Positions 246 through 56,779 of a stretch of DNA of 64,000 nucleotides are shown here, in pieces. Origin of the DNA: Squalus acanthias (Eukaryota); contig CM059432.1 in the NCBI GenBank assembly GCA_030390025.1, positions 35,466,001 to 35,530,000 on the forward strand, given 5' to 3'. The position numbers and the translations under genes are program-made. The notes beneath the pieces were generated by a model. It saw nothing but the letters and a program-made list of their open reading frames with translations, was not told the DNA's origin and searched no databases. How positions within the stretch are numbered: position 1 is the stretch's first letter; each line of letters opens with the position of its first letter.

Positions 246-770
246 AAGCTTCAATAGGCCAAATCTCAAGTTTGACTAGACACATAACATATTCATACAG
301 CTCTCCCTTTCCACACCAAATTGGGTGTTAAAAATAATTTAATATTGATTACCGTTGAAAAAGAGACAGAGTCCAGTTATTTTGATGGTGGGGGATTCGG
401 CAATGGTAATGCCATTGAATGTCAATGGGCGGTGGTTAGACTCTCACTTGTTGGAGATAGTCATTGCCTGGCACTTCTGTGGCGCAAATGTTACCTGCCA
501 CTTATCAGCCCAAGCCTGAATGTCGTCCAGGTCTTGTTGCATGCGGGCATGGACTGCTTCATTATCTGAGGAGTTGTGAATGGCACTGAACACTGTGCAG
601 TCATCAGCGAACATCCTCATTTCTGACCTTAAGTTGGAGGGAAGGCCATTGATGAAGCAGTTGAAGATGGCTGGGCCTAGGACACTGCCCTGAGGAACTC
701 CTGCAGCGATGTCCTGGAGCTGTGATGATTGACCGTCAATCACCACAACCATCTTCCTTTGTGCTAGGTA

Positions 771-1010
771 TAGAAACATAGAAACATAGAAACATAGAAT
801 CTAGGAGCAGGAGTAGGCCATTCAGCCCGTCGAGCCTGTTCCACCATTCAATACGATCATGGCTGATCATCCAAATCCAGTACCCTGTCCCTGCTTTAAT
901 CCCCACAGTACACATATCCCACCCTACCCCCGTAACCCCACGTATTTAATTCCCCCTAACATATCCCATCCTATCCCCATAACCCCACATATTTAATCCC
1001 CCCCTAACAC
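771..1010 (-). mobile_element. CR1 3'-tail insertion with short tandem repeats, nested in LINE A
   Basis: (TAGAAACA)x3 tail plus GGAGTAGGCCATTCAGCCC CR1 terminal motif; interrupts the RT region. Confidence 0.75.
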
Positions 1011-1704
1011 TAATGACTCCAGCCAGTGGAGAGTTTTCCCCCGATTCCCATTGACTTCAGTTTTACCAGGGCTCCTTCATGTCACACGCCGTCAAATGCT
1101 GCCTTGATGTCAAGGGAGTCACTCTCACCTCACCTCTGGAATTCAGCTCCTTTGTCCCTGTTTGGACCAAGGCTGTAATGAGGTCGGGAGCAGAGTGGTC
1201 TTGGCAGAACCTAAACTGGGCATCAGTGAGCAGGTTATTGGTGAGTAAGTGCCGCTTGATAGCACTGTCGATGACACCTTCCATCACTTTGCTGATGATT
1301 GAGAGTAGACTGATGGGGCAGTAATTAGTCGGATTGGATTTGTCCTGCTTTTTTGTGGACAGGACATACCTGGGCAGTTTTCCACATTGTCGGGTAGATG
1401 CCAGTGTTGTAGCTGTACTGGAACAGCTTGGCTAGAGGCGCGGCTAGTTCTGGAACACAAGTCTTCAGAAGGACAGCCGGGATGTTGTCGGGGCCCACAG
1501 CCTTTGCTGTATCCAGTGCGCTCAGCCGTTTCTTGATATCACGTGGAGTGAATCAAATTAGCTGAAGACTGGCTTCTGTGATGATGGGGACCTCAGGAGG
1601 AGGCCGATATGGATCATCCACTTGGTACTTCTGGCTGAAGATGGTTGTAAACGCTTCAGCCTTGTCTTTTGCACTCACGTGCTGGGCTCCATCGTCATTG
1701 AGGA

Positions 1705-2075
1705 ACGGTAGGATAGTGGTAATGTTACTGAACTAGTAATCCAAAGGCCTAGACTAATAATTTGAAGATAAGAGTTCAAATCCCACCATGGCAGGCTGGG
1801 AATTTAAATTCAATTAGCTAAAATAAATCTGGAAGAAAAAGCTAGTGTCAGTAATGGTGACCATGAAACTATTGGATTGTTGTAAAAAGCCATCTGGTTC
1901 AGGAATGTTCTTCAGGGAAGGAAATCTGTTGTTCTTACCTGGTCTGGCCTATATGTGACTCCAGACCCACAGCAATCTGGTTGACTCTTAACTACCCTCT
2001 GAAATGGCCTAGCTGGGCAATAAATGCTGGCCTTGCCAGTGATACCCACATCCTGTGAATGAATAATAAAAAAAA
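1705..2075 (+). mobile_element. tRNA-head SINE made of the LINE A 5' end plus the LINE A 3' tail
   Basis: A-box-like TAGGATAGTGG (1709), B-box GAGTTCAAATCC (1772). 3' end GGGCAATAAATGCTGGCCTTGCCAG...poly(A) matches the LINE A terminus. AGGA on both flanks. Confidence 0.85.
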
Positions 2076-3784
2076 GGATGGTGATATTCATGGAGCCTCT
2101 TCCTCCTGTTAGTTGTTGAATGGTTCACGACTGGATGTGGCAGGACTGCAGAGCTTTGATTTGATTGTGGGATTGCTTAGCCCTGTCTATAGCATGCTGC
2201 TTCTGTTTTTTAGCATGCATGTAGTCCTGTGTTGCAGCTTCCCCAGGTTGGCTCTTCTACACTCCTCATTGAACCAGGGTTGGTCTCCTGGCTTGATGGT
2301 AATGGTAGAGTGAGGGATATGCCGGGCCATGAGGTTACAGATTGTGGTGGAATACAATGCTGCTGCTGCTGCTGATGGCCCACAGCGCCTCATGGATGCC
2401 CAGTTTTGAGCTGCTAGATCTGTTCTGAATCTATCCCATTTAGCACGGTGGTAGTGCCACACAACACGATGGAGGGTGTCCTCAGTGTGAAGACGGGACT
2501 TCGTCTCCACAATGACTGTGCAGTGGTCACTGCTACCAATACTGTCATGGACAGATGCATCTGCGACAGGTAGATTGGTGAGGATGAGGTCAAGTAGGTT
2601 TTTCCCTCATGTTGGTTCTCTCACCACCTGTCGCAGGCCCAGACTGGCAGCTATGTCCTTCAGTACTTGGCCAGCTCGGTCAGTAGTGGTGCTACTGAGC
2701 CACTCTTGGTGATGGACATTGAAGTCCCACACCTAGAGTACATTCTGTGCCCTTGCTACCCTCAGTGCTTCTTCCAAGTGATGTTCAACATGGCGGAGTA
2801 CTGATTCATCAGCTGAGGGAGGGCAGTAGGTGGTAATCAGCAGGAGGTTTCTTTGCCCATGCTTGACCTGAAGCCATGAGACTTCACGGGGTCCGGAGTC
2901 AATGTTGAGGACTCCCAGGGCCACTCCTTCCCGACTGTATACCACTGTGCCGCCACCCCAGGTGGGTCTGTCCTGCCGGTGGGACAGGACATACCCAGGG
3001 ATGGTGATGGAGGAGTTTGCGACATTGGCTGAAAGGTATGATTCTGTGATTATGACTATGTCAGGCTGTTGCCTGACTGGTCTGTGGGACAGTTCTCCCA
3101 ATTTTGACACAAGTCCCCAGATGTTGGTGAGGAGGATTTGCAGGGTTGACTAGGCTAGTTGTGCCGTTGCCGTGTCCGTAGCCGGTGCCGAAGTCGATGC
3201 CGGGTGCTCTGTCCGGTTTCATTCTTATTATTTTGTTTCGTAGCGGTTTGTTACAACTGAGTGACTTGCTAGGCCATTTCAGAGGGCAGTTAAGAGTCAA
3301 CCACATTGCTGTGGGTCTGGAGTCACAGATAGGCCAGACCAGGTAAGGATGGCAGATTTCCTTCCCTAAAGGACATTAGTGAACCAGATGGGTTTTTATG
3401 ACAATCCGATAGTTTCATGGTCACCATTACTGATACTAGCTTTTTATTCCAGATATATTAAATTAACTGAATTTAAATTCCCCAGCTGTCATTAGTCCAG
3501 GCCTCTGGATTACTAGCCCAGTGACATTACCGTTCCCTTAGTCCCACTCTCTTTGGCCTTAACCCTTTTTTTTGGAGAATCATATAATTTACTGGGAAGC
3601 TTCCAACTGGATTATCTGGGTAAAAACACCATACAAATTCGGTCAATATTTATAAAGTACTGATCAGACATCTCAAAGTGCTTCACATACAATGAATGAC
3701 TAAAGTGCAGTGACTGTTGCTATTGTAGTGACTAAAATAAATAATATTATGGACTGGTGACGGTACCAGTGGAAAGACACTTCA

Positions 3785-4545
3785 CCTGGCCGCGCGCTCC
3801 CTCGCACCTGACGCCCTTGCGTTTAGCTGCCAGAAGCGCGCGCACCCGCAGGGGCGCACTTTGCTCTTTCCTCGCGAGTTGGGAACGGAGGCGCGCGCCC
3901 GCACTCTGGGGAATTATTGTGGAGCGCGCCTGTGTTTCCCCCCCCTGCCGCAATTTTAGGGTCTGTGTCTGCAGGCGCGCCCCCGGCAGAGGGCCGGCCC
4001 GCCATCCGCGTGCACGTACACACAGAGGAGCAAATATATTCAGCCAAAAAAAAAAATCAACAGAAGCAACAACATAAAAGAAAAAAAGAAAGCCCGGAAC
4101 CGAGATGGCGGAAGCGCTCATTGTGTGAAAGAGAGAGAAAAGAAAGAATATTCAGCCGGAGCAACTTTTAACTTAATTAAAGGTTTTATTTAAAAATACA
4201 AAGCGAAGAACCCCAGCTTGCTGGAAAAGAAAAGGATGAGGAAAGAAAATCTTCACTGATGCTGAATTCTTTGCAACATTTTTTTGCAACAAGGCAATAA
4301 TTTCACATTCAAAAATCTTTTTTGCAACAACGGGGGAGAAGAGGAAAGCAGGGATGAAGAGTTGCAAGAAAAAACTGCGAGTGTGAGAGAAGAGAGAGGA
4401 AATAATAAATTAATAAAACGAAGAAACCACTGCTTTTGCCGGCCGAGGAATGGCTTCGAAGGAGAGGCTGTACGAGCTGTGGATGTTGTACTTCACCAAG
4501 GTGAGTGCACACCTGTAGCGCGGGGCCAGGGCCGCTAGGCTCCTG
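3785..4545 (+). promoter_or_regulatory. CpG-island promoter and 5' UTR of the NBEAL gene
   Basis: Dense CpG/GCGCGC tract 3785-4115 in apparently unique sequence. YY1-like GATGGCGG (4104) overlaps ETS-like CGGAAG (4109). Lies directly upstream of the coding exon. Confidence 0.8.
4450..4500 (+). CDS. NBEAL2: First coding exon (17 codons, phase-0 end) of neurobeachin-like protein, probably NBEAL2 (NBEAL1 possible)
   Basis: ATG at 4450 in strong context (GGAATGG) gives MASKERLYELWMLYFTK, then AAG|GTGAGT donor at 4501. From memory, human NBEAL1 starts MASRERLFELWMLYCTK and NBEAL2 starts MAASERLYELWLLYYAQ, both with a 51-nt first coding segment. Y8, aromatic residue 15 and location in the CpG island favour NBEAL2. 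Family call is strong; paralogue call is about 0.6. Confidence 0.85.
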
Positions 4546-13738: not shown

Positions 13739-16700
13739 AGAATAATAATAAGAAATAAACCAGACGGACCACCTGGCATTGACCTCTGCACCTGCTACGG
13801 ACACGGCAACGGCACACCCAGCCCAGTCAACCCTGCAAAGTCCTCCTCACCAACATCTGAGAACTTGTGCCAAAATTGGAGAGCTGTCCCACAGACTAGT
13901 CATGCAACAGCCTGGCATAGTTATACTCACAGAATCATACCTTTCAGCCAATGTCCCAGAAGGGTCATTGACTTGAAACGTTAACTCTGTTTCTCTAATC
14001 ACAGATGCTGCCTGACCTGCTGAGTATTTCCAGCATTTTCTGTTTTTATTCCTCCATCACCATCCCTGGGTATGTCCTGTCCCACCGGCAGGACAGACCC
14101 ACCAGGGGTGGCGGCACAGTGGTATACAGTCGTGAAGGAGTGGCCTGGGAGTCCTCAACATTGACTCCGGACCCCATGACGTCTCATGGCTTCAGGTCAA
14201 GCATGGGCAAGGAAACCTCCTGCTGATTACCACCTACTGCCCTCCCTCAGCTGATGCATCAGTACTCCGCCATGTTGAACACCACTTGGAAGAAGCACTG
14301 AGAGTAGCAAGGGCACAGAATATACTCTGGGTGAGGGACTTCAATGTCCATCACCAAGAGTGGCTCGGTAGCGACACTACTGACCGAGCTGGCCGAGTCC
14401 TGAAGGACATAACTGCCAGTCTGGGCCTGCGACAGGTGGTGAGAGGACCAACACCAACAAGGAAAAATCTACTTGACCTCGTCCGCACCAATCTACCTGT
14501 CGCAGATGCATCTGTCCATGGCAGCATTGGCAGCAGTGACCACCGCACAGTCATTGTGGAGACGAAGTCCCATCTTCACACTGAGGACACCCTCCATCGT
14601 GTGGTGTGGCACTACCACCGTGCTAAATGGGATAGATTCAGAACAGATCTAGCAGCTCAAAACTGGGCATCCATGAGGCGCTGTGGGCCATCAGCAGCAG
14701 CAGAATTGTATTCCACCACAATCTGTAACCTCATGGCCCGGCATATCCCTCACTCTACCATTACCATCAAGCCAGGGGATCAACCCTGGTTCAATAAGGA
14801 GTGTAGAAGAGCATGCCAGGAGCAGCACCAGGCGTACCTAAAAATGAGGTGCCAACCTGGGGAGGCTGCAACACAGGACTACATGCATGCTAAAAAGCGG
14901 AAGCAGCATGCTATAGACAGGGCTAAGCGATCCCACAATCAACAGATCAGATCAAAGCTCTGCAGTCCTGCCACATCCAGTCGTGAATGGTGGTGGACCA
15001 TTAAACAACTAACGGGAGGAGGAGGCTCCAAGAATATCCCCATCCTCAATGATGGGGGAGCCCAGCACGTAAGTGCAAAAGACAAGGCTGAAGCGTTTGC
15101 AACCATCTTCAGCCAGAAGTGCCGAGTGGATGATCCATATCAGCCTCCTCCTGAGGTCCCCACCATCACAGAAGCCAGTCTTCAGCCAATTCGATTCACT
15201 CCACATGATATCAAGAAACGGCTCAGCGCACTGGATACAGCAAAGGCTATGGGCCCCGACAACATCCCGGCTGTCCTGCTGAAGACTTGTGCTCCAGAAG
15301 TAGCTGTGACTCTAGCCAAGCTGTTCCAGTACAGCTACAACACTGGCATCTATCCGACAATGTGGAGAACTGCCCAGGTTTGTCCTGTCCACAAAAAACA
15401 GGACAAATCCAATCCGGCCAATTTCCGCCCCATCAGTCTACTCTCAATCGTCAGCAAAGTGATGGAAGGTGTCATCAACAGTGCTATCAAGCGGCACTTA
15501 CTCACCAATAACCTGCTCACTGATGCCCAGTTTGGGTTCCGCCAAGACCATTCGGCTCCCGACCTCATTACAGCCTTGGTCCAAACATGGACAAAGGAGC
15601 TGATTTCCAGAGGTGAGGTGAGAGAGACTGCCCTTGACATCAAGGCAGCATTTGACGGAGTGTGGCATCAAGGAGCGCTAGTAAAATTGAAGTCAATGGG
15701 AATCAGGGGGGAAACTCTCCACTGGCTGGAGTCATACCTAGCACAAAGTAGATGGTTGTGGTGATTGGAGGTCAATCATCACAGCCCCAGGACATCGCTG
15801 CAGGAGTTCCTCAGGGCAGTGTCCTAGGCCCAACCATCTTCAGCTGCTTCATCAATGACCTTCCCTCCAACATAAATTCAAAAATGGGGATGTTCGCTGA
15901 TGACTGCACAGTGTTCAGTGCCATTCACAACTCCTCAGATAATGAAGCAGTCCATGCCCGCATGCAACAAGACCTGGATGACTTTCAGGCTTGGACTGAT
16001 AAGTGGCAGGTAACATTCGCGCCACAGAAGTGCCAGGCAATGACTATCTCCAACAAGCGAGAGTCTAACCACTGCCCTTTGACATTCAATGGCATTACCA
16101 TCGCCGAATCCCCCACCATCAACATCCTGGGGGTCACCATTGACCAGAAACTTAACTGGACCAGCCACATAAATACTGTGGCAACAAGAGCAGGTCAGAG
16201 GCTAGGTATTCTGCGGCGAGTGTCTCTCCTTCTGACTCCCCAAAACCTTTCCAACATCTACAAGGCACAAGTAAGGAGTGTGATGGAATACTCTCCACTT
16301 GCCTGGATGAGTACAGCTCCAACAACACACAAGAAGCTCGACACCATCCAGGACAAAGCAGCCCGCTTGATTGGCACCCCATCCACCACCTTAAACATTC
16401 ACTCCCTCCACCACCGGCGTACCATGGCTGCAGTGTGTACCATCTACAAGATGCACTGCAGCAACTCGCCAAGGCTTCTTTGGCAGCACCTCCCAAACCC
16501 GCGACCTCTTCCACCTAGAAGGACAAGGGCAGCAGGCGCATGGGAACACCACCACCTCCAAGTGCCCCTCCAAGTCACACACCATCCTGACTTAGAAGTA
16601 TATCGCCGATCCTTCATCATCGCTGGTCAAAATCCTGGAACTCCCTACCTAACAGCACTGTGGGAGTACCTTCACCACACGGACTGCAGCGGTCCCAGAA

Positions 16701-16770
16701 GGCGGCTCACCACCACCTTCTCCAGGGCAATTAGGGATGGGCAATAAATGCTGGCCTTGCCAGCGACGCC
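13739..16770 (+). mobile_element. LINE family A, near-complete APE-RT ORF (pseudogenised)
   Basis: 492-aa ORF 14286-15764 and 331-aa ORF 15752-16747 joined by one frameshift. APE motifs (ILTESYL, DFNVHH, SDH) and RT motifs (FRPISLL, QFGFR, GVPQGSVLGP, FADD). Confidence 0.95.
13961..14049 (+). mobile_element. Penelope-type terminal fragment inserted in LINE A
   Basis: Matches the terminus of the element at 37178-37280 (GAAACGTTAACTCTGTTTCTCT...CTGCTGAGTATTTCCAGC). Absent from the other LINE A copies. Confidence 0.8.
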
Positions 16771-16960
16771 CATTCCACCAGCCTGTCTATGTCCTCTTGA
16801 AGTCTATCACTATCCTCCTCACTGTTCACTATACTTCCAAGTTTAGTGTCATCTGCAAATTTTGAAATTGTGCCCTGTACACCCACATCCAAGATATTAA
16901 TATATATCAAGAAAAGCAGTGGTTCTAGAACCGACCCCTGGGGAACACCCCTGTATACCT
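16771..16960 (-). mobile_element. CR1 RT fragment (5' continuation of 12935-13738)
   Basis: ORF 16731-16970 GVPQGSVLEP...SKFADDTKLG. Confidence 0.85.
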
Positions 16961-17595: not shown

Positions 17596-18055
17596 TGATG
17601 TCAGAAAGCACTTCTTCACAGAGTGCAAATAATATCTGGAATGGGCCGGGGGGGGTGGGCAAGTGGGGACAACACTCTGAAGTCATTCAATGGGAAGTTA
17701 GGTGCTGTGATGAGAAATTGTAGGGAAGGATGAACTAGATGCGCCGAAAGGCCCCTCCATCCATATTTACCTTTGTGAAAGGAATTTCTTCTGAGTTCCA
17801 AATGTGTTTAATACGTAAAGACATTTTCCTGTTTTAAATGTGCAGCCTGGTTTGCTAAATGCACAGGCTGAATTAGTACATCGGATATTTCGGAGCCAAT
17901 GGTGTTAAAAATGCCAAATGAAAGAACTCCAATTAAAACAGAGAACCATAATGAAGTCATTACTTTGCATGTATGCACAAAGATATGTTTGTTTTCCTAA
18001 TGGATATTTAATGGGCTTGCAAATTGTGGGGATGACAGCATAAACGGGTGAGGAA

Positions 18056-18405
18056 ACCCAGGTGAGATAAACAAATTGGAGGGGCCCCCCCCCCCCCCAG
18101 GTGAGACGGGGCAAGAGGGCCCCCCCCCCCCAGGTGAGACGGTAAGAGGCCCCCCCCCAGGTGAGACGGTAAGAGGGCCCCCCCCCAGGTGAGACGGGGT
18201 AAGAGGGGCCCCCCCAGGTGAGACGGTAAGAGGGGGCCCCCAGGTGAGACAGGGTAAGAGGGGTCCCCCCAGGTGAGACAGGGTAAGAGGGGCCCCCCAG
18301 GTGAGACGGGGTATGAGAGGCCCCCCAGGTGAGACGGGGTAAGAGGGGCCCCCCAGGTGAGACGGGGTATGAGAGGCCCCCCAGGTGAGACGGGGTAAGA
18401 GGGGC
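18056..18405. repeat. GC-rich minisatellite, 26-33-bp unit, about 12 copies
   Basis: Unit approximately CCCCCAGGTGAGACGGGGTAAGAGGGG with variable C/G run lengths. Confidence 0.95.
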
Positions 18406-19649
18406 AGAAGGTGAAATAGAGTAAACAGAGTAGTGCTGCACCTGAGTCAAGCTGACAGCATGGGTAGATGGGTCTGAAATCAATTAAAAAGGATTAGTAT
18501 TGTTGGGCCTGCATGACTTTTTTTCCATTCCTAACATGTGTCTTGGTATGGAAGGTCGTGATGACCATTTGATGAGATGCATGATAGGAGAATTGTTGAA
18601 AGCTCACAGGATCCAAACTGTAAATTAAATTAGTGATTGGAGAGGTAATAGGAATCCGAGGCTAGTTACCAATGGAAATGGTTCTAATTGGGCAGCTGCG
18701 ACCTCCTTCCTTCACAGAACATTCTTTCGACTCTTCAGTTATTGAAAATCTTTACCAATGACCTTGAACAAGGTAGACGAGTAAGCGTTCAGATGTGAGG
18801 TACACAACTTGGAAGACTTCGAGGGAAGATTAGCAATGGGTAATGAAAACAACAGTGCATAGTGACAAATGCAGTGCAACACACACCAATAAATAGCAGG
18901 TGTGATTACAAAAGGAGTGGTGGATTGTCAAACTAAGGTGCAGCAGGAGTGCTGTGGGACTTAACGCCAAATCTTGTCACATTACAGTGCAGGGATTGTC
19001 AAAACAAATTGCACACTTGGGTGTATCACTGGATGAACACATAGGAATTGCGCTTACTCTCTCCACAAAGCAATGGTGAAACCACATTCCAGAGTGTTGT
19101 AACTTTGATGGCGAATAACTGCTCCGGGAAGATTCGAACGGCTTGTTATTGTTTTCATCTTGGATTCTAGTTTAAATGACAATATGGCCTAGAAATTGGA
19201 CCACTTACCGCTATCCATTTGCGCCGCTGTCCTGGTGAAAAATGATGGCCGCCACTCTAGCGCCCTTCACTGGCGTGGAATTCGGCGCCCACCATTTTGG
19301 TGAGGGCCTTAGCGCTGCCGATAGCAGTGCTGGCCGTGGACATGTAAATAAAGAGCGGGTGACTGCACGCCGACTTAACGTCACCTCAGCGAACTTTGAC
19401 CTTAGCGCTGAGTTCAGCGCTGGGTCCTAAGCTCACTATGAAAACCCAGCATTCAGCAGACTGACAGAGATGCTGTCAGCACCTCATAAATGGACACACT
19501 CATCTTTCAGGTAAGTTTGCATTTAAGCTTTAGGACTGGATTTTTATTTTATTGAAGTAGTGGCTTGGAGCAATACAGGTTAAACGTTTTTTAAGTGTGC
19601 AGGGAATGCGGCTGGAGGCTTGCAAGGCCTCGGATGGTAAAGGATATAT

Positions 19650-28294: not shown

Positions 28295-29037
28295 GGGGTA
28301 AAAATTCAGTTGGTTGCGCCTCCCGTTAGCGCCTTAAGAGGGCGCTAATGGGGCGCAAAGCCGCTAACGCCCGGGCGCAGCGATGTTTGCGCCGCTCGGG
28401 AACTTAACTAGAAATTGTGCGGCGGCGCTAAACCTTACCGCTGCGACCACCTGCGCGCGCAGATTGTGACGTCATTCCATGGTGCAACGCCCTTGTGGCG
28501 CCCTGGAGCGGAAATTGAGTGGCGCCCCCTGCCTTACCGCCTGGCGCATCCAACGACCGGAAGACTGGAACGCTATCAATCGCTGTGGGGCTGGGGGGGG
28601 GGCGCTATTTAAAGGGGGCCTCTTCCTGTCTTTTTCTGTGGTTGACATTTTTGCACCACTCGTTCTGAGAGAGAGAGAGAGATTCGGAGAGAGAGAAAGA
28701 GAGACTTCTGCATTGAGTCAACGCTTTGTGAGGTAGTTTTGCCTACTGATCCTAACAGTTGGCCCCCCCCCGCTTTAAGAACTGGCCGGCGCCAGTGTGT
28801 CTGTGTTCCCTCGCTAACTGGCAGCAGCTGCGCTGCGCTCGCGCGCTGAGTTAGCGCCTCACTGCTCGGCCTTTGCGCCTTAAGACAGGTGTGCAGCGCC
28901 TGATTTAGCGCTCCACTCACCTCCCGGGGCGGTAAAAGTGAAGTTTCCAGTCAGTGGCGATAATTAGCGCCAGGCGCTAATATTTGCGTCCAGACGATAT
29001 TTGCGCCCCAAATGGGGCGCGACCTAATTTTTCCCCC
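28295..29037. mobile_element. Non-autonomous Harbinger-type element (sister of 35101-35995)
   Basis: TIR GGGGTAAAAATT / AATTTTTCCCCC; TSD TGG. Confidence 0.9.
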
Positions 29038-29734
29038 TGGGTTCCTCCAACTCTGGCCTCTTACACCCCCCACTCCCTTCACCCCACCATTAGCAGCCAT
29101 ACCTTCAGCCGTCTAGGTCTGTAATTACCTTCCTAAACCGCTCGGTCTCTCAATCTCTCTATTCTCCTTCAAGACCCTCCCTAAAACCATTTTTGACCAA
29201 GCTTTTGGTCACCTTTATTACTATCTCTTTTGGCTTGGTGATCATTTGTTGTCTAAATCACAATCCTGTGAAGCACCTTAGGATGTAAATACATTAAAGG
29301 ACTGCAAGTTGTTGTTGGTTCTCGCTGGTACCGCCTGCAGTTTCTACTCTCACTGCAAACTTTCAACCCAGGCTCCACTCCCTGACAGTTGACGCAGGGT
29401 TAAGTATGTTCATTTTCCCACCTTCTTTCCTGAGCACTGGGATACACTTCCACAGGTCCCATTGGAACCTTGTCCCAGTGCGTACTATTAGCGCAAGCTT
29501 AACCATCGCCAGACCGTTTGAACACTGAGAGCGTCGCAACCATATATCCTGGTCTCGCCTAATGTCGACACGTGGAACTTTCAGCAGGGATCACTGGATA
29601 GAAATCAAATGGATATTGTTTTGCACTCCCTAGCGCAGGGGTCCTGAGGCCAGTTGTTATGTCACTACTGCTAATTCAGCACAGACCAAGAATCAAACCT
29701 GGGATCTTCTGCTGTGTATGGCTTCGTATTGTAC

Positions 29735-30525
29735 TCACTGTGCAGTGGTCACTCCTACCAATGCTGTGATGGACAGATGCATCTGTGACAGGTAAATTGG
29801 TGAGGATGAGGTCAAGTAGGTTTTTCCCACCACCTGCCGCAAGCCCAGTCTGGTAGCTATGTCCTTCAGAGCTCGGCCAGTAGTGGTGCTACCGAGCCAC
29901 TTTTAGTGATGGACCCCCACCCAGAGTATATTCTAAGAACATAAGAAATAAGAGGAGTAGGCCATATGGCCCCTCGAGCCTGCTCCGCCATTCAATAAGG
30001 TCATGGCTAATCATCGATCTCAACTCCACTTTCCCGCCCGATCTCCATATCCCTTGATTCTGTGTCTTTGCTACCCTCAGTGGCTTCTTACAAGTGGTGT
30101 TCAACATGGAGGAGTACTGATTCATCAACTGAGGGAGGGCAGTAAGTGGTAATCAGCAGGAGGTTTCCTTGCCCATGTTTGACCTGATGCCATGAGACTT
30201 CATTGGGTCCGGAGTCAATATTAAGGACTCGCAGGGCCACTCCCTCCTGACTGCATACTACTGTGCCGTCACCTCTAGTGGGTCTATCCTGCTGGTGGGA
30301 CAGGACATACCCATAGATGGTGATGGGGAAGTCTAGGACGATGGTTGAAAGGTATGATTCTGTGAACATGACTGTCATGCTGTTGCTTGATTAGTCTGTG
30401 GGACAGCTCTCCCAATTTTGGCACAAGTCCCCAGATGTTAATGAGCAGGACTGTGCAGGGTGGACTGGGCTGGGTGTGCCTTTATCGTGTCCGAATCTGA
30501 TGCCTAGGTCGATGCTGAGTGGTCT
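29735..30525 (-). mobile_element. LINE family A APE-region fragment with nested CR1 tail (29935-30056)
   Basis: ORF 30088-30378 (TESYL...QDRPTRG). The CR1 tail is flanked by an ATTCT duplication. Confidence 0.88.
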
Positions 30526-31411
30526 TGGACCAAACATCAAACATTTAATCAACTGAGGGAAAGATAATTAAGCAAAACTCCAGAATATTCATCCATCCTG
30601 CTGTCTCTATCTTCAACCTTAGCTCATGAAGCATCGTGACTCATGGATTATTTAATCTCTTTTTGTACCTATCCCTATAACCACCAATCCAATTCCCAAA
30701 CAAATATTTATCCAGCTCCTTTTTGAAGGAGCAAATCTACACAACGCCAACTCGGGGTGTATTATTGGCAAGATAGAGTGATGACAGCACCAACATGACC
30801 TGCATCCAAGTCATGGCTATTACAGGCACAGCTTTTGTGGGATGGACATGTCCACATCTCAGTCAAATGTAAGTGTTGTTCGCCCATCGCCCCTGTCCTG
30901 CTGCCATCCAACTGGCTTCTTGTTTCTCAACATATTGGCCGTGAAATTCCCCCTCTTAGCATCTGCATTTAAAGATGGTTTCGGCAGATAAATGGCAGCC
31001 GCCTTACTTCTGGCCATTTCCGGCGCAGGCCACGGCCATCGCCATTTTGGTGAGGTCAGTCGCACGGCCATTGCCTGGGTTAGGCAGAAGAATGCCAATG
31101 AGATAGATCGTAACGTCAATCAGCGTGCAATGCTGATTTGATGCAGGACCTGCTATTTTAGACATTGCTGCTCAACTGCACGCCCTCTCCAGCTGCACAA
31201 GGGACCCCCCACCAATCACATTTAAAGGGATAATCAACAACTTGCAGGTAACTTGTATTTTGATTTCTGCTGGCTCTATGTAAGTTTGTGGAACTGTTTG
31301 GAGCTTTCTACAGTTATTTAAAGTTGGTGAGGTGACGGGGAGTGGTGCTGTAAGTGGAAAAGGCCTTGCTTCTGAATTCAAGGGTTCTGCTCGGACCACT
31401 TGCTCCCAGCC

Positions 31412-32470
31412 ATGGGGGCTCTGCTTGCAGTCCCCCTCATGTTGCAGCATGACTGGGAGATGGAGCAGAGGCAGCAAAGAAGAGGACAAGCTGCTCGCAG
31501 AGGGAGGAAGAGGAGGGGCAGGAGGGCGCTCAGCAGGAGGCCTTACCCAGCTAGGGTCTTCCAAGAGCACTTCTCCTACCTGCACTTAAGCCAGGAGCAG
31601 TGTATTTGGAGGCTCCACTTCACCAAGGAGATGGTCACAGAACTCTGCCACCTCTGCAGCCTCAGAGCAGAGCGACAACGGGTCTCCCAGTGGCCCTCAA
31701 GTTTTTCGCCACTGGATCCTTCCAGTCTGGAGCAGGAGACATTGCTAACATCACCCAGTTTGTCGTTCAGTGCTGCATCTGAGAGGTCACAGAGGCTCTG
31801 TACTCTAGGAGAAGGGACTTCATTGTCTTCTCTCTGAACAGAGAGAAGCAGGAGGAGCATGCATGTGGCTTTGCCAGGATATCGGGCTTCCCCATGGTGC
31901 AGGACGCCATCGACTGCACACACGTGGCTTTGCGGGCACCACATATCAATCCTGAGCTGTACCGCAACTGCAAAGGCTACCACTCACTTAATGTGCAGTT
32001 GGTGTACGACCACGCCCAGCGCATCATGATGGTGAATGCCCGCAGTCATGATGCCTTCATCCTGTGCTAGCAATCTTCCAGCCACCATGTCGAACCTGAG
32101 GGTGGTTGCACAGAGACAAGGGCTATCCGCTCTACTGATGACTCCCCTCCGCAACCCCACCACTCATGGCCAGCAGTCATATAATAAAAACCATATTGCT
32201 ACGAGGAACCTCATTGAGAAGACCATCGGGGTGCTAAAGCAACGGTTCTGCTGCCTTGACTGCTCGGGAGGAGCCCTCCAGTACACGCCGGAGTATGTGT
32301 CCCATTTCATGGTGGTCTGCTGCATCCTCCACAACTTGACCATCATGAGGGCGCAGCCCTTGCCACCACAGGTTCCGTGACCACCTCAGGAGGAGGAAGG
32401 GAGGAGGCAGGCAACAAATCCCTGTTTCCGACGGGCTTTCTGTGAGTGCCTCATCAGACTCCACTTCCAA
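31412..32470 (+). pseudogene. Harbinger (HARBI1-like) DDE transposase pseudogene
   Basis: ALKFFATGSFQ, GFPMVQDAIDCTHV, KGYHSLNVQLV, DKGYP, RNLIEKTIGVLKQRF and CCILHN across frameshifts and stops. Confidence 0.92.
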
Positions 32471-32692
32471 AGAATGAAACTCCAGATCCTCGTTTCTCAA
32501 AACTTCACCACCTTACCATCCCTCTGTCACAGAACATCACAGCATCCTCTTGGGCACAAAGCTGAAATGAGAGCCACCACAAAACAAACATTCCAAACAA
32601 AATTTATAAATGATTCAATCCAATACTACATATCAAAGTCAACTAATCACCCTTGTGCTTTCCCTTAATGTCTGTCTTTCGTGTTCCTTTGC

Positions 32693-34537
32693 TTATTTTA
32701 GTGCTCCTACGCTTATTTTAGTGCTCCTACGCAGTGCTACCCCAGTGGCTGCAGCATGGCTGGTGGAAGGCTGCTGCTTTTCTGTGGGGGACACTGCAGA
32801 TGGCCCTGCAGGATGGCCTCGAGCAGTTCTGGGCCTAGAAAGCCCGGCTGTAGACTGCACTACCTCAGCATGGGTGGCAGCAGTCTGGGCTGGATGGCTG
32901 ACGGGCAGCAGCAAGGCACTGGCGGAGTGGTAGTGGTGAGAGTACGAATGCTGTAATTCTGAGAAAGGACAGCAGGTTCTTGCTCCACGGAGCCACTACC
33001 ACTCCCTGGGCATTCCTAGCCAACTGTTGGAGCACAGATTGCTGGACTGCTGTGAGACCGTGCAAGCATCTTTCCACACTCGTAAACCCAGCCACGATGA
33101 CATTAGTCTGTGTCTGCGTGGCACCAAACTGAGCCTGCATGAGAGCAGTCTGAGCTTCCACTGTAGCACTCAGACATTGGGTCACTTCTGCTTGTGCTGT
33201 AATGGAAACTGTGACATCTCCCATCACACCCAGCATCATGGTTGGGTCCACAAGTGCTGCAATGGTGTTCTCCATTACTTCCATCCTGGAAATCATGGGC
33301 TCCAAGCTCCATGCAAAGCTCCGTGCAATGTTGAAGCTGGACTCCTCCATGCTTATTGAAGCTCTCTGGCAGGCCTGCCATTGCACGAAGCATTTCTGTG
33401 TGCATGCACATCACCCTTCTTCTTAGGCTGCCTCATCAAAATCCTCATCTGAGTCCTGTAGAACTCGTGTACGAACTCGCCCTCCGGGGAGTTGGCACCC
33501 AAGATATCCTATCCCCCAGCCTGACTGCAGCCCACTCGTGCCCAGTGACTCACCACGTGCAGATCCCGCCTCTATACTACCCACTAAAGTACGTGCAGTG
33601 CCATTTTCTGAGCTGGTGCCTGGGAGTGCCTCTTCTTCTCCAACACTCTCCTCCTCTAGTTGGTCGGGGACTGGCTGGGTTGCTGGCAGTTCTTGGGTAT
33701 CTGAAAGGAGAAAGGCACAAGGGTTGGGTTGTGGTGAGGAGAAGGGGGAAAGCAAGATGTGCATCCTTACACCATCAGCAGCTTGTAAGTGAGAAGAGAT
33801 TGTGTGATGAGGGGGAAGTGGGATGTGAGAAGAAGAATTAGGTATGAGCATACAGTCATCATCAATGCTTTCAACCTCACTGCTCACCATGGCCTTGTTG
33901 ACAGGCCTCCAATCATCTCCATCACAGTCTCCCAGTCTCCGCCAGTGCAGTAACGTTCTGCAGACGTGCTTCACCCCCCACCTGTCCGCTGCTGCTCACG
34001 GCGGCTGTGAGCCTCCTTGGCCTGCAACAGAAAAGGAAGTGCATCAGTGAGTGTGGTGCAATGTGTTTGGGTCATGTGCCTGTCATGGTTGAATAGCTGA
34101 CATTTTGTGCAAGGTATGAGATGTGGGCGTGAGGCTTGCAGCAGTGGTAAGTCTCTGAGGGCGAGGTGAAACTATGATTGTGAGGTATGAGTCGTGATTG
34201 CTAGAGCTTGTTGGTAGATGAATGATGGGGGTGTGATGCATTGAGCAGTGTGTGAGGCTAGTGGTGCAGTTGGTGGGATATTGCATTTGAAGATGCATTC
34301 ACTCACCTTGACCATTCGTGTGAGGTCATTAAACTTCTTGTGGCACTGGATCCAGGTCCTGGAGGCAATACTGACAACTTGGGCTGTCTCCTCCCACTGC
34401 CTTCTGAAGTTCTGTCTCGAAGGTCTCCTGCCCCCCTGCGGGTAGAGGACCTGTTTTCTTCTGTGTACCCCGTGGACCCAGGCCTCCAGTGCTGCATCTG
34501 AGAAGTGCCGTGCCCTTTCTCTTCCCTGTTGCGACAT
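32693..34537 (-). pseudogene. Harbinger Myb/SANT-like DNA-binding protein pseudogene, 3 exons (34537-34307, 34021-33854, 33700-~32693)
   Basis: RARHFSDAALEAWV...QWEE...RTWIQCHKKFNDL trihelix/MSANTD-type motif. Donors AAG|GTGAGT and ACT|GTATGC, acceptors TTGCAG and TTTCAG. Confidence 0.82.
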
Positions 34538-35100
34538 GGCTGCATCCACAGTGACAATGAGGTGCTTCTGCAACAAAGCACCTCCCCTTTAAGAAATGCA
34601 GAGAGCCTAGGCAAAATGTTATTGACCAGTAGACTGCACCTGATATTGGCCCCCTTCTTCAACACTGAGCCAACCAGCGCTCCAATCATTGTAATGAGCA
34701 AGCAGCCCATTTGCAGGCCTAATCCAATTTCACCCCCCATTAAGTTTAAAATTTGTGTCCTTGGCTATAAATCCCTCCACAGCCTTGTTTCACCCAATGT
34801 TGCCAGCCTGCCTGTCCTCTAACCCCTCTTAAATGCTCCATCGACTGATTCTGGTCTTTTAATCTGGTGGCAGAGCTTCAGTGACATCAATCCGCTGAAA
34901 CTCTCTCTTTGCCTCTCCATCTCTCTTTACACCTTAAAATGATTTCTCAAACTCATCTCTTTAGCCAAGCTTTTCACCCCATTTCCAAAGCACTCTGGTT
35001 CTGGTACAGCGTTCGTTCTCAGTCACCATCTGTGTTGAAACCATGGGACGGTTTCTATATTAAACATATCAAAACATAATATTTTAATATTATAAACATA

Positions 35101-35995
35101 GGGGTAAAAATTCAGTTGGTTGCGCCTCCCGTTAGCGCCTTAAGAGGGCGCTAATGGGGCGCAAAGCCGCTAACGCCCGGGCGCAGCGATGTTTGCGCCG
35201 CTCGAGAACTTAACTAGAGATTGTGCGGCGGCGCTAAAACTTACCGCTGCGACCACCTGCGCGCGCAGATTATGACGTCATTCCATGGTGCAACGCCCTT
35301 GTGGCGCCCCGGAGCGGAAATTGAGTGGCGCCCCCTGCCTTACCGCCTGGCGCATCCAACGACCAGAAGACTGGAACGCTATCAATCGCTGTGGGGCTGG
35401 GGGGGGGGCGCTATTTAAAGGGGGCCTCTTCCTGTCTTTTATTGTTGGTGGCATTTTTGAACTACGCATTCTGAGAGAGAGAGGGAGAGACTTCTGGAGA
35501 GATTCAACGTTGTGTGAAGGAGTTTTGGGTACTGAGCAGCACTTTGCAGGTTCATTTTGATTTGCCATTCCTTGTATCGATTTAGCAGAGACTGTGGGAG
35601 CTGCACTCTGAGCTCTTTGCCTGGTACTCTCCATTGTTCTTTCCAGCACATTTGATGTGCAAGTCTCTCCAGGCCGAGATTCAAGGCTGCAATGAACAGG
35701 ATGTGGATGGAAAGCAAGATTAACCCTCCCCTTTAAGAACTGGCCCGTGCCATTGTGTGTGTGTTCCATTGCTGACTGACATTACATGAGCTTCGCCAGC
35801 GCTCTGAGTTAGCGCCTCACTGCTCGGCCTTTGCGCCTTAAGACAGGTGTGCAGCGCCTGATTTAGCGCTCCACTCACCTCCTGGGGCGGTAAAAGTGAA
35901 GTTTCCAGTCAGTGCCGATAATTAGCGCCAGGCGCTAATATTTGCGTCCAGACGATATTTGCGCCCCAAATGGGGCGCGACCTAATTTTTACCCC
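35101..35995. mobile_element. Non-autonomous Harbinger-type element
   Basis: Perfect TIR GGGGTAAAAATT / AATTTTTACCCC; TSD ATA. Confidence 0.92.
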
Positions 35996-37177: not shown

Positions 37178-38442
37178 ACAACAACAGAAAACGCTGGAAA
37201 AACTCAGCAGGCCAGGCAACATCCATGGAGAGAGAAACAGAGTTAACGTTTCAGGTTGAAACCCTTCGTCAGAACTGAGAAAAAAGCAGGAAATGAAACA
37301 GATAAAAAAGCAAGGGGGAGGCTGGGGGGAGGAATAAAAGAACAAAAGAGGAGGTCTGTGATAAGTAGAGACATTAAGAGATGCTCAAGGCGAGACGAGA
37401 TGGTAATAGGACAGGTTAAGAAACAAAAGGTGGCTCAGAAGTGTAAAGTGTGAAATGCTGGCAGAATGAGAGACAGCTGCTGTGGGGGGAGAGAGAGAAA
37501 AAAAAAGGAAAAGGCACAAACCAAAAGGGTGGATAAAATGTATGTGGTAGGGGCCGAGGTTATGATCTGAAATTGTTGAACTTGATATTGAGTCCGGAAG
37601 GCTGTAAAGTGCCTAATCGAAAGATGATGTGCTGTTCCTCGAGCTTACGCTGAGCTTCCGTGGAACAATGCACGAGGCCGAGGACGGTGAGGTCTGAGTG
37701 GGCGTGGAGAGGTGAATTAAAATGACAAGTGACCGGAAGCTCAGGGTCACCCTTACGGACTGAACGGAGGTGTTCTGCAAAGCGGTCACCCAGTCTGCGT
37801 TTGGTCTCCCCAATGTAGAGGAGACCACATCGTGAGCAGCGAATACAGTATACTAGATTGCAAGAAGTACAAGTAAATTGCTGTTTCACCTGGAAGGGGT
37901 GTTTGGGGCCCTGGAGAGTGGGAAGGGGGAATGTATAAGGGCAGGTGTTGCATCTTCTGCACTTGCACGGGAAGGTGCCGGGCGAGGGGGAAGGGGTGCT
38001 GGGGGTGATAGAGGAGTGGACTAGGGTGTCTCGGAGGGAGGGGTCCCTGCGGAATGCTGAAAGGGGAGGTGAGGGGAAGATGCGTTTGGTGGTGGGATCA
38101 CGTTGGAGGTGGCGGAAATGGCGGAGGATAATCCGTTGAATGTGGAGGCTGGTGGGGTGAAAGGTGAGGACAAGGGGAACTCTATCGTGGTTCCGGGAGG
38201 GAGGGGCTGGGGTGAGGGCAGAAGTGCGGGAGATAGAACGGACACGGTCGAGGGCCGTGTCGACCACGGTAGAGGGGAATCCTCGGTTGAGGAAAAAGGA
38301 AGACATGTCGGAAGCACTGGTATGGAAGGTGGCATCGTCGGACAGATGCGGCGGAGACGGAGAAACTGGGAGAAGGGAATAGAGTCCTTACAGGAGGCGG
38401 GGTGGGAGGAAGTGTAGTCCAGGTAGCTGTGGGAGTCAGTGG
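37178..38442 (-). mobile_element. Penelope-like element, 5'-truncated, GIY-YIG endonuclease region intact
   Basis: ORF 37560-38306 with NLVYCIRCSRCGLLYIGETKRRLGDRFAEH and GTLQPSGLN. Inserted in a CR1 tail (37130-37177 / 38443-38680) with TSD GATAA(A/G)GAGAA. Confidence 0.93.
37241..37276 (-). ncRNA. Minimal type I hammerhead ribozyme motif
   Basis: Minus strand: AGUU-CUGACGA-AGG(GUUUCAA)CCU-GAAA-CG-UU-AACU, i.e. stem I, core, stem II, GAAA and palindromic ACGU stem III. Confidence 0.75.
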
Positions 38443-39164
38443 GATAAGGAGAATTTTTTTTACGCAGTGAGCTGTTATGATCTGGAATGCACTGCCTGAA
38501 AGGATGGTGGGAGCAGATTCAGTAGTAACTTTGGAAAGGGAATTGGCTGTATACTTCAAAAGGAAAGAATTGCAGGATTATGGGAAAAGAGCAGGGGAGT
38601 GCAACTAATTGGATAGCTCGTTCAAAGAAATGGCACAGTCACGATGGGCTGAATGGCCTCCTCTGTGCTGTAACCCTGCTATCAGCTGATGACTACTTGC
38701 TACTTTACCTTTATCAAGTCTTTTTGTCTCTGCAACTTTACTTTGTCCTGCACTATCTGCATTAGGTTATCAATTTGGTTTCTCAATTCGAAGATACTGT
38801 AATGGAAGCTCCTGTTATTCCAAGTCAAATGACAACTGCAGCTCCCTTGCTGGGCTCAGTGAATGAATGCACTACCTGCTAGGGTATTGTGCCAAAAGAC
38901 CAGAAAGGTCCTGAGTTCAATACCTGGTCTGCACTGTAAGAAACTGCATGGTCCAGGGTATAATGCAACCTAGGGTAATGGCTGTCAGTGAAGGTCCCAA
39001 GTGAGATGGCTTTGAGACAATAGCTGCCCATTTTCCCAGTGGAATGAAGTCCACTTTGGTGAATTCTAACCTCACTCAGAGGTACCTGAGAGTGGCTGTT
39101 GTTGTGGAAATATAAAGGTTGAAGATTCCATCCTCAACTCTTCTCCTAAGGTTGAGGTGAAATG

Positions 39165-48559: not shown

Positions 48560-48945
48560 TAAAAATTTCATTCTTTGGATGAAAGCGTCGCTGGAAAGGC
48601 TGGCATCTATTGCCCAACCCTAGTTCCTCTGAGAAGCTGGCTCTCTTTTAGGAACTGATTTTGTGGTTTGCCACTTCAGAGGTCAGTTAAGAGTCATCTA
48701 GGCCAGACCAGGAGGTTTCACTCCCTAAAGGACATTAGTGAACCAGTTGGGTTTTTACGACAAGCCGACAGCTTCATGGTCACTTTCACTGATACCGGCT
48801 TTTTAGTTCCAGATTTTTTAAATCTCAGAATTTGAATTTGAGAATTCAAATTCTCAGACTGCCATGGTGGGATTTGAATTCACCTTATCTGGATTATTAA
48901 TTCAAGATGCTGAATTACTAGTCCAGTGACAGCCACTACACTACT
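48560..48945 (-). mobile_element. LINE A head+tail SINE
   Basis: Head (TACTAGTCCAGTGAC, GGTGGGATTTGAA), body (CCTAAAGGACATTAGTGAACCAG) and tail (ATTGCCCAACCCTAGTT). Confidence 0.8.
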
Positions 48946-49437
48946 GTACCACTCTGCCCTTCTCTGAATGATGCCACAGGATCTTTAACAGCGACCTGAA
49001 CAGGCAGATGGCACCTTGGTTTAACATCTCATCTGAAAGACAGCATCTCCAACAATGCAGCGCCCTCTCAGTACTGCACTCAAGTATGGGACGCAAGCAT
49101 GCAATCTTCCGACCCAGAGCTAAGAGTGCTACCAACTGAGCCAAGGTGGCAAGCGTTTAAATGAATGAAGGTAGTGAACTTTGCTTCTGTGGCGCTATCC
49201 ACACCAATGGTCCCTGTAATTATTTTTGGCACCACGCGGCCGCTTTAAGGGACTGTGTGGGCCATTCAAGATACCGCACATGCGCGGTTTTTGCATTGAA
49301 AAGCTGCAGGCTGGCTGTGCGGGTTCCCTGGAGCGCCGTGCAGCTTAAAGAGAACATTGATCCACACCCCAACTTTTCCAAAGAACAACACAGGGCTGCT
49401 TCTTGTTGGCATCTAGTGAGCACAAAAGAAAGACCAG

Positions 49438-55087: not shown

Positions 55088-55548
55088 AGAAAAGAAAGAA
55101 AGAACTTGCATTTATATAGCGCCTTTCATGACCTCACGATGTCCCAAACGCTTTACAGCCGATGAAGTACTTTTGAAGTGTAGTCACTGTTGTAATTTAG
55201 GAAAACGTGGCTGCCAATTTGCGCACAGCAAGGTCCCACAAACAGCAATGAATAAAAGACCAGATAATCTGTTTGTGATGTTGGTGGAGGGATAAATGTT
55301 AGCCTGGACACCTGGGAGATCTCCGCTGCTCTTCTAACCGTGCCATGGGATCTTTTATATCCACCTGAGAGAACAGACAGGTTTAATGTCACATCTGAAA
55401 GTGACGTGCAGCTGATAGTGCAGCACTCCCTCAGTACTGCACTGGAGTGTCAGCCTAGATTTTGTGCTCAAGTCTTTGGAGAGTGCATTTGAACCATGAC
55501 CTCCTGGCTCAGAGGCGAGAGTGCTATCAACTGAGTCACGGCTGGCAC
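55088..55548 (-). mobile_element. Deu-domain SINE, full length
   Basis: Head to TTCTTTC tail on the minus strand. Confidence 0.86.
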
Positions 55549-55710
55549 CCAAGGTGGTGGTGGGCCTTCCCCTTGAATGACTGCAGTTCGTGTGATATTC
55601 TTTGTAGCAGTTTGATGCAACTGAGTGGCTTGCTAGGCCACTTCAGAGGGCAGTTAAGAGTCAACCACGTTGGTGTGAGACGGGAATCACATATAGGCCA
55701 GACTGGGTAA
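55549..55710 (-). mobile_element. Fragment of a LINE A head+tail derivative with a different junction
   Basis: Matches 3240-3340, then jumps to the LINE A 3' region (cf. 16676-16718). Confidence 0.75.
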
Positions 55711-56779
55711 TTAAAAATGTTACATTTAATTTGAAACAGACTTGCGGAAAGCATGTGGTGAGAACATTTTGTTGTGTTTGGCCTCCTGTAATTTTTGGTG
55801 CTTTATCGGTGTTACCGAAATAAACACAGACTACAAAAGGTTGTGTCCGATGGGGATTTTGTCAGTTAAATCTGAAACCAGGAACTCTATTAATAAAAAT
55901 TAAAGCACACTGGGCTGGTTGGGGAATTTGGGGCTTCTGTGGTGCTTAGACTGAGCATCAGTTTCAGCTGATCGGTCAGGTTTGTGCAGCAGAGAACCTC
56001 GTTTGGTCTGGTCCCAGGCAGTCTGGGTGCGTGGGATGTTGAGAAGCCCTCGCCTCTTTCTCTCGGGACACTGTGAAGAAAAACAGTGAGATGCATTGAG
56101 AGAGGGAGAAGGTACAGTGATACGATGAGAAGGCAGGTAGGAGGGATTAAGATAAATCGAAACGGATGGGCCTGTTCAGTCTTGCTGCTCTGTCTGGGTT
56201 GTACCTGTTTAGCATTTGTCCTGTTCGTAAAAATGCTTAGAATTTCTCCACCCCAGTTCAGTTTCTTCATTGGAGTTAAAACCATTTTGTTGCATAACCT
56301 ATTTTCTGCTCTGTTCTGACTCTGCATTCTTCCCTCTTTTGACTGCTAACTATTTCTTCCCCCAATTCTGCTTTCTCTGTGCCTATTTCATGCCAAACTG
56401 ATTTTTCCCCATTCTTTCTTTCCTCCTTCCTTTCCTAATTTTCTCTTTCCTTTCTTCCCTTCTTTTGGCATCCATTGTGATGAATCAGTCCTCCACCCCT
56501 CGCCTGGCGAACTATCCTTGTCCCTCTCCTTGTGTAAGACTCTCAGTTCTTCCCCTCCCCTTCCATCTTGCTTCCAAAGCATTGTGCCACAGAGCAGTCT
56601 AGGCTAGGTCCCAGGCCTAGGCTGTGAATGGCATCAAGCAGTTTAGAGTTACCCAGTCCTCACTTCTCCTCCTCCTCCTCCTCTTCTCTCCTGCACATCT
56701 TACTGGCCAGTTAGCCTGACCTCCGAGCTCTGTAGCATCTTAAACCTAGGCACTAGAATGAGCCCTAAGTGACCCCATA

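Follow-up and report, generated by a model that had tools for sequence, protein, structure and literature searches.

The window analysed here, a stretch of 64,000 nucleotides from Squalus acanthias, contains on its minus strand a dead, decayed copy of an abundant 3.3-kb Zenon LINE of sharks and rays. In this family a head, a conserved body, a leader and just one open reading frame (ORF) transpose together as a unit whose 5' end is fixed, and the junction that joins them is real and family-wide. We propose that the head, which by its sequence is of tRNA origin, acts as an internal RNA polymerase III (Pol III) promoter from which the LINE's full-length template RNA is made, a reading to which we give a probability of roughly 60%.

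Running down from position 3537, the window copy is arranged in the order of head, body of about 235 nt, stop codon, A-rich linker, basic leader and APE domain (Table 1). Its head and body match the short element at 1702-2075 with 89% identity over 216 nt (the head match is 41 nt at 88%), and neither a tail nor a TSD lies between the body and the leader, so that the description in an earlier note of a head and body running directly into the leader and APE is borne out. The same note saw no room for an ORF1; there is indeed none, but the short A-rich linker and an AUG-led 48-codon overlapping frame do sit there. As also reported before, the B box is gone, by a 31-nt deletion between 3489 and 3488 relative to intact copies, but the A box is most simply gone as well, by an 11-nt deletion between 3528 and 3527; an alternative alignment keeps a diverged A box at the cost of 5 mismatches. 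Further damage consists of a frameshift near 3137, a stop codon at 2735-2733, two later insertions and the missing 3' end.

Table 1. Parts of the LINE copy near the start of the window and related elements elsewhere in the window
Feature	Position	Strand	Remarks
tRNA-derived head remnant (as judged from sequence), LINE 5' end	3489..3537	-	both boxes deleted here, intact in many other copies
Conserved non-coding body, ~235 nt, common to the LINE and short derivatives	3254..3488	-	not Meta, not UCON3
In-frame stop (3253-3251), A-rich linker, AUG (3222-3220)	3220..3253	-	AUG frame of 48 codons overlaps main ORF in another frame
5' part of single ORF (basic leader, APE endonuclease, linker)	2076..3250	-	broken by frameshift and stop
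Short internally deleted derivative	1702..2075	+	head and body (family 2-312) fused to tail (3255-3315); lies antisense within the LINE copy, no TSD
RT region of window LINE copy	1013..1704	-	family positions 1558-2250, 95%
RT region of window LINE copy	379..771	-	family positions 2249-2641, 96%; 3' end missing
Second LINE copy	13744..16772	+	5'-truncated at family position 348; near-complete ORF and tail
Diverged 5'-truncated LINE copy (leader and APE)	29737..30524	-	family positions 371-1066
Older-type short derivative	55551..55710	-	body and leader start (234-358) fused to the LINE 3' end (3193-3236); does not represent a LINE 5' end
Older-type short derivative	48585..48950	-	head and body 2-254 and tail 3230-3286

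Just upstream of the LINE, positions 3750-4200 (minus strand) are CpG-rich and carry a short ATG-led hydrophobic frame; this stretch may represent a host gene's first exon, in which case the LINE would lie within an intron, in the sense orientation. Elsewhere in the window, a GC-rich minisatellite with units of 27-30 nt occupies 17900-18490. The broken frames at 31376-34800 resemble a Harbinger/PIF-type transposase and a Myb-like partner, and a frame with a GIY-YIG-like motif at 37560-38518 (minus strand) probably belongs to the 3' portion of a Penelope-like element.

The junction was then followed through the genome. An initial search, biased by the 80 nt of body in its query, yielded 30 loci with the junction. 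Two further searches were carried out with queries lying outside the head and body; after removal of 2 self hits and 1 duplicate they gave 57 copies, which are the best 30 of about 2,400-3,400 candidates per search and lean towards well-preserved copies. Among these best-scoring copies, 52 of the 57 extend upstream into the same body, and the starts are found at family position 12 or lower in 30, at 13-90 in 9, at 91-320 in 13 and beyond 320 in 5. The fixed 5' point lies 8 nt before the A box, with 30/57 copies starting within the first 12 nt; in 3 of these 30 a later insertion interrupts the link to the head, and the 60-nt upstream flanks of the 30 copies are unrelated to one another (mean identity 26%, maximum 40%). 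The join is not a local feature but the normal 5' end of the family. The 5 of 57 copies that stop short (338-369) have no common upstream sequence, and no alternative 5' UTR or ORF1 was found among them; neither of these, nor a junction unique to this locus, all of which the earlier note had named as grounds for giving up its reading, was seen among the 57 copies. No TSD was detected: matched flanks of 11 copies share 0-4 nt, no more than mismatched pairs do (mean 3.0), and 1 of 12 copies has no findable end.

A hidden ORF1 variant was also considered and rejected, as the inserts of 600-900 nt found in four copies between body and leader or within the body are unrelated insertions, three of them palindromic and MITE-like, with two copies sharing one element. 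Palindromic MITE-like inserts of 700-900 nt are present at loci L036, L226, L046 (near family position 345) and L224 (near 290). Three palindromic inserts lie in the A-rich linker, two of them being copies of one element at almost identical sites, and the L224 insert matches window positions 35100-35995 and 28295-29038.

Assembled contigs extend the junction beyond this genome. Those from another organism (run X1) have a sharp edge, with 301 loose ends at the head start and an agreement of 0.33; the body-leader join is bridged in runs X1, X9 and X14, by contigs that show no start, strand or cap. At least seven organisms contain half or more of the sampled words from the stretch of head plus APE. 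An accidental junction, made by SINE insertions beside 5'-truncated LINEs or by chimeras with them, would agree with the presence of only one full junction in the window and with the known existence of chimeric retrocopies. We reject it as extremely improbable, and the earlier note, too, had argued against a chance SINE insertion: one collinear junction recurs in 52/57 independent copies (best 30 per search), the five short-stopping copies offer no other 5' UTR or ORF1, and the consensus sequences published for five species have this junction as well. The element at 55549-55710, previously taken for an independent copy of the head-leader junction, does support the link between the two, but it is a short internally deleted element and not a LINE 5' end; it contains about 20-30 nt of leader and then joins the LINE 3' end (family positions 3193-3236; last 120 nt).

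A family majority sequence was derived from 13 head-bearing near-full copies, of 20 fetched, which are 94.5-96.9% identical to it. It is about 3,318 nt long and has one 973-codon frame encoding APE and RT, with no ORF1. Together with the Pfam domains Exo_endo_phos_2 (APE) and RVT_1 (RT) detected in the sister copy at 14136-16744, this confirms the earlier description of a single-ORF LINE. The A box is located at 9-19 and the B box at 74-84, a tRNA-like spacing. In the main ORF the first in-frame AUG comes only far inside APE. Family position 358 carries an AUG that opens a 48-codon frame overlapping the start of the ORF, out of frame with APE-RT; this AUG is present in 49/91 copies in this genome (27 have ATA), and an out-of-frame AUG after the body was also read by eye in all five published elasmobranch consensus sequences. 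Recurrent APE variants fall mostly on third positions (23/36), as expected of a once-coding ORF, and the leader variants comprise 3 synonymous and 4 nonsynonymous changes in the main frame and 2 and 5, respectively, in the AUG frame.

The tail consists of AATAAA and then an A-run, which is A4 or longer in 83/93 tails. In 17 of the 93 a T run of at least four directly precedes the A-tail (e.g., in the window near 26007 and 48585), similar to the terminator-plus-poly(A) ends of T+ SINEs as described in PMC10572872. This T run is possibly a terminator of the T+ type, a point to which we attach little weight because it is absent from most tails and can also arise by slippage.

By its sequence identity to published elasmobranch Zenon, the family is a member of Zenon (CR1 group). 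Stuart et al. 2026 (PMC13343379) describe Zenon elements from five elasmobranchs (SquAca_Zenon-1 and the CarCar, ScyCan, RhiTyp and HypSab Zenon-1), all without ORF1, ending in poly(A) and not yet in repeat databases. The window family is like them in lacking ORF1, in its poly(A) tail and in having the same head, body and leader. SquAca_Zenon-1 is 3,314 nt long, compared with about 3,318 nt for the family majority, and differs from it at 4 positions in the first 400 nt, which were compared by eye. In the first 400 nt of the white shark, catshark, whale shark and stingray consensus sequences, again by eye, the same head, body and leader are present. An A box of the type TRGCNTAGTGG lies 5-10 nt from the 5' end in 5/5 published consensus sequences inspected in this way, and the B box is intact in 4/5 and one base short in the ray, while the spacer and the first bases of the head vary among the five species. 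No head is found in the first 400 nt of two hagfish and one coelacanth Zenon, nor in the lepidopteran Zenon derivatives as given in PMC6740152. Since the lack of ORF1 is a published trait of the Zenon clade, it is not a consequence of head capture.

What is already known, then, is the Zenon family, its lack of ORF1, its poly(A) tail and, as sequence, the head; as a finding the head is not in print as far as the main text of PMC13343379 goes, where it is not described, 'tRNA' and 'polymerase' have 0 matches each, and short derivatives, the missing in-frame AUG and T-avoidance are not reported. The promoter architecture of published Zenon thus appears to have been overlooked, and in the literature searched, which left out Repbase, Dfam and most subscription papers, no account of a tRNA-headed autonomous Zenon was found. 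In protein searches the relatives are from sharks and rays (64-89%), followed by distant animal LINEs (about 35%); the nearest non-shark RTs are 48-50% identical. In a quick RT tree that contained no labelled Zenon references, the RT came off at an open fork and fell outside a group, supported at 95%, that holds the CR1 and L2 of this genome. An atlas search returned generic APE-RT clusters only, and a metagenome scan revealed no invertebrate-type relatives.

The head was compared with tRNA genes of this genome and matched tRNA-Ser(AGA) at 53-55 of 82-84 positions and tRNA-Thr(AGT) at 46-54 of 74; the two score alike (51-58.5 vs 47-51.5). The head-tRNA score was reached by 0/500 shuffles in all 12 comparisons, and by 1/500 in one comparison of a separate set. 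ARAGORN at -ps90 calls the family head as a tRNA (0/300 shuffles pass); at its default setting it makes no tRNA-like call in the 64-kb window, and the Rfam match to the head is weak (14 bits, E 9.8). The tRNA alignments reveal no preserved acceptor stem. The match to tRNA genes above the shuffles and the ARAGORN call at -ps90 lead us to regard the family head as tRNA-derived. At G000:C889:337854-866516 this genome has dozens of tRNA-Ser(AGA) genes in a tandem cluster, with about 1.7 kb from one to the next in many cases.

RNA folding of the head and body gave structures no better than those of shuffles (head z -0.56). By eye, both hairpins of the head persist in the different species with altered sequence. 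The second one (positions 49-67) is, in this genome, a near copy of the anticodon arm (28-46), with 16-18 of 19 nt identical (e.g., in L063 and L072), and in other species it is different and more like a long variable arm. Its interpretation as a duplicated anticodon arm consequently holds for this genome only, where local homogenisation possibly produced the copy.

For the body, the earlier note had suggested a likeness to the Meta-domain, which in MetaSINEs measures 66 bp and comes right behind the tRNA head. This did not hold, as by eye the body shows no likeness to the bivalve Meta-SINE consensus sequences BivaMeta-SINE1 or BivaMD-SINE1 in the supplement of PMC4824008. The UCON3 domain was likewise rejected by eye on two rows of the supplement of PMC7245038, in which two body motifs had 0 matches.

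The short, SINE-like copies were collected with two queries. Of the 30 loci that the window SINE retrieved, 12 run on into the ORF, whereas in 18 the head and body are joined to the LINE end; among 30 found with 55545-55712, 28 are such head/tail joins and 2 are LINEs. The short copies (18/30 and 28/30 loci) thus contain only a 5' and a 3' portion of their partner LINE, fused together, as is characteristic of a short internally deleted element (SIDE). The breaks are scattered over 305-357 on the 5' side and 3170-3255 on the 3' side, with two recurrent classes, the longer of which carries the last ORF codons; many joins include the ORF end. Diagnostic bases, which are common to old LINEs and old short copies, sort 143 elements into an old (4 LINE/25 short), a middle (26/21) and a young class (26/1), with 40 in no class, counts that reflect the queries used and not abundance. 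The simplest reading of these sequences is that the short copies, which fall into three age classes, arose when the head-bearing LINE repeatedly lost internal sequence. The earlier proposal that the LINE captured a SINE is supported in that a head of probable tRNA origin is the normal 5' end of the LINE, but the SINE seen here finds no support as the donor, since the examined copies look LINE-derived.

The coding strand of the family has 0 T4 runs in about 3,300 nt compared with 14 A4 runs. We do not accept this absence as diagnostic of Pol III: 1.65 runs are expected when the ORF's own codons are shuffled (P(0) 0.15-0.16), P(0) is 0.018 under a base shuffle and 0.26 under a dinucleotide model, and a headless RTE control, whose 5' end is made of tandem repeats, also has 0 in 2,212 nt (the CR1 control has 8 in 2,019 nt and the L2 control 3 in 1,481 nt). 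An RTE-like single-ORF LINE family, seen in the window at 57161-58471 (plus strand) and at loci L136-L160, has a coding strand without TTTT over 2.2 kb, and its 5' end is a variable array of GC-rich tandem repeats of about 20 nt after a TATA-like motif.

Shorter T motifs were examined with 1000 shuffles of the ORF's own codons among synonymous sites, with CR1, L2 and RTE controls from the same genome. The Zenon ORF has 74 TT against 90.6 expected (0/1000 shuffles as low), 5 TTT runs against 11.4 (P 0.006) and 1 motif with four T in five positions against 7.4 (P 0.005), these being several P values from a handful of motif tests chosen after the data were seen. Runs of A, C and G are not depleted in the same ORF, and the controls show no T deficit (RTE 9 vs 8.2, CR1 31 vs 29.1, L2 16 vs 11.4). 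The T-run avoidance of the coding strand would fit Pol III read-through; it could also be an older Zenon-wide trait. In the first 357 nt, recurrent non-CpG variants occupy 0/20 box positions and 37/319 others, and at this background of 11.6% the box conservation within the genome is not significant alone (P ~0.09).

We favour a Pol III promoter as the best reading because of the fixed start upstream of the A box, the boxes kept across species and the avoidance of T-runs. A rather unlikely alternative makes the head a passenger: Pol II would transcribe the LINE from a promoter located within its head or body, and the A and B boxes would be kept for the short derivatives, or because TFIIIC binding aids Pol II or the opening of chromatin. 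LINEs are regarded as Pol II units (PMC5786205 and the discussion in PMC10886601), capped RNA would solve the problem of translation, AATAAA and poly(A) are found in the tail as in Pol II RNAs, and the RTE family is TTTT-free without any head. This alternative gives no reason for a start at the first base of the tRNA in five species with differing first bases, it leaves the T-specific depletion in the ORF unexplained, and selection on derived copies cannot keep boxes in LINE masters unless sequence flows back. The AUG after the body (all five published consensus sequences, 49/91 copies here) speaks for the passenger reading, but this conserved AUG is out of frame with APE-RT.

Still less probable is an element with no promoter of its own, co-transcribed by host Pol II, the 5' end of which is set when a tRNA-like fold is cut by an RNase P-like activity or a ribozyme. 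Such cleavage would account for the precise start at the first base of the tRNA and for the two hairpins that persist with altered sequence in the different species, and 5' ends set by ribozymes have been described in other LINE clades (R2, some RTE; PMC5786205). The acceptor stem needed by RNase P is, however, not preserved, the head folds no better than shuffles, and the 9 weak Rfam matches (E up to 10) in the first 900 nt include no ribozyme, although divergent ribozymes can escape such a search; cleavage also predicts neither T-avoidance nor strict conservation of the B box.

Under the Pol III reading, the ancestor of sharks and rays would have gained the head on a Zenon that had none, through template switching with a tRNA or an earlier SINE as the source. 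Pol III would then transcribe from the head and pass through the ORF, terminator-like T-runs having been purged, and terminate at or beyond the A-rich tail; the element's own RT would copy this RNA by target-primed reverse transcription, and short derivatives that retain promoter and tail would act as SINEs. Uncapped RNA is poorly translated. The weakest step in the scheme is the protein, which would need non-standard initiation because the ORF lacks an in-frame AUG until well inside APE: ribosomes might be loaded onto the uncapped RNA by the conserved body or the overlapping AUG-led frame, or the protein might come from Pol II read-through RNAs of other copies. Pol III is also held to be limited to short RNAs in the account given in PMC10886601. 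We put forward only tentatively, as somewhat doubtful, the full Pol III life cycle, in which a 3.3-kb uncapped RNA without an in-frame AUG would be both template and mRNA in an element that predates the shark/ray split and repeatedly spawns SINEs.

The textbook division sets LINEs, as coding elements transcribed by Pol II, against SINEs, as short parasites that use Pol III, and Pol III is considered unfit for long coding elements. A protein-coding LINE transcribed by Pol III would, if true, break this divide, and a vertebrate LINE that keeps its boxes and avoids T-runs makes the rule that LINEs are Pol II elements directly testable. Zenon would also offer a natural case of non-AUG, possibly cap-independent translation. 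The origin of SINE bodies is a long-standing question, and here the partner LINE would supply head, body and tail by the simple route of internal deletion.

Among known systems, the tRNA-headed SINEs built on bipartite LINE fragments (Bov-tA, SINE2-1_ACar; PMC5786205) likewise combine a tRNA head with a 5' and a 3' part of a LINE, but there the head was added to a non-coding deletion product, whereas here it sits on an autonomous coding element. Promoter swaps across the Pol II/Pol III divide are described for the LP-SINEs of molluscs, the mirror case of a SINE with a LINE promoter (PMC4758252), and for TRIMp3 elements (Cassandra, Helenus, Ajax), which are short, non-coding LTR elements and whose autonomous partners, as argued in PMC10886601, must use Pol II. 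MetaSINEs also have a tRNA head followed by a conserved body, and their heads too scored closest to tRNA-Thr, but the body differs by eye (supplement of PMC4824008); the same arrangement with a body unlike ours by eye is found in UCON3-domain SINEs (supplement of PMC7245038). None of the other shark or Zenon-partner SINEs presented in PMC5499810, PMC3747384, PMC6685494, PMC11481361 and 10.1101/443036 matches. The closest parallel in form is lepidopteran Zenon, about 3.3 kb long, with abundant 5'+3' deletion derivatives (Persaeus) and variable joints as here. Persaeus is stated in PMC6740152 to have no homology to tRNA, 5S or 7SL and no Pol III promoter, whereas the derivatives described here inherit the tRNA head and thus look like SINE2 elements.
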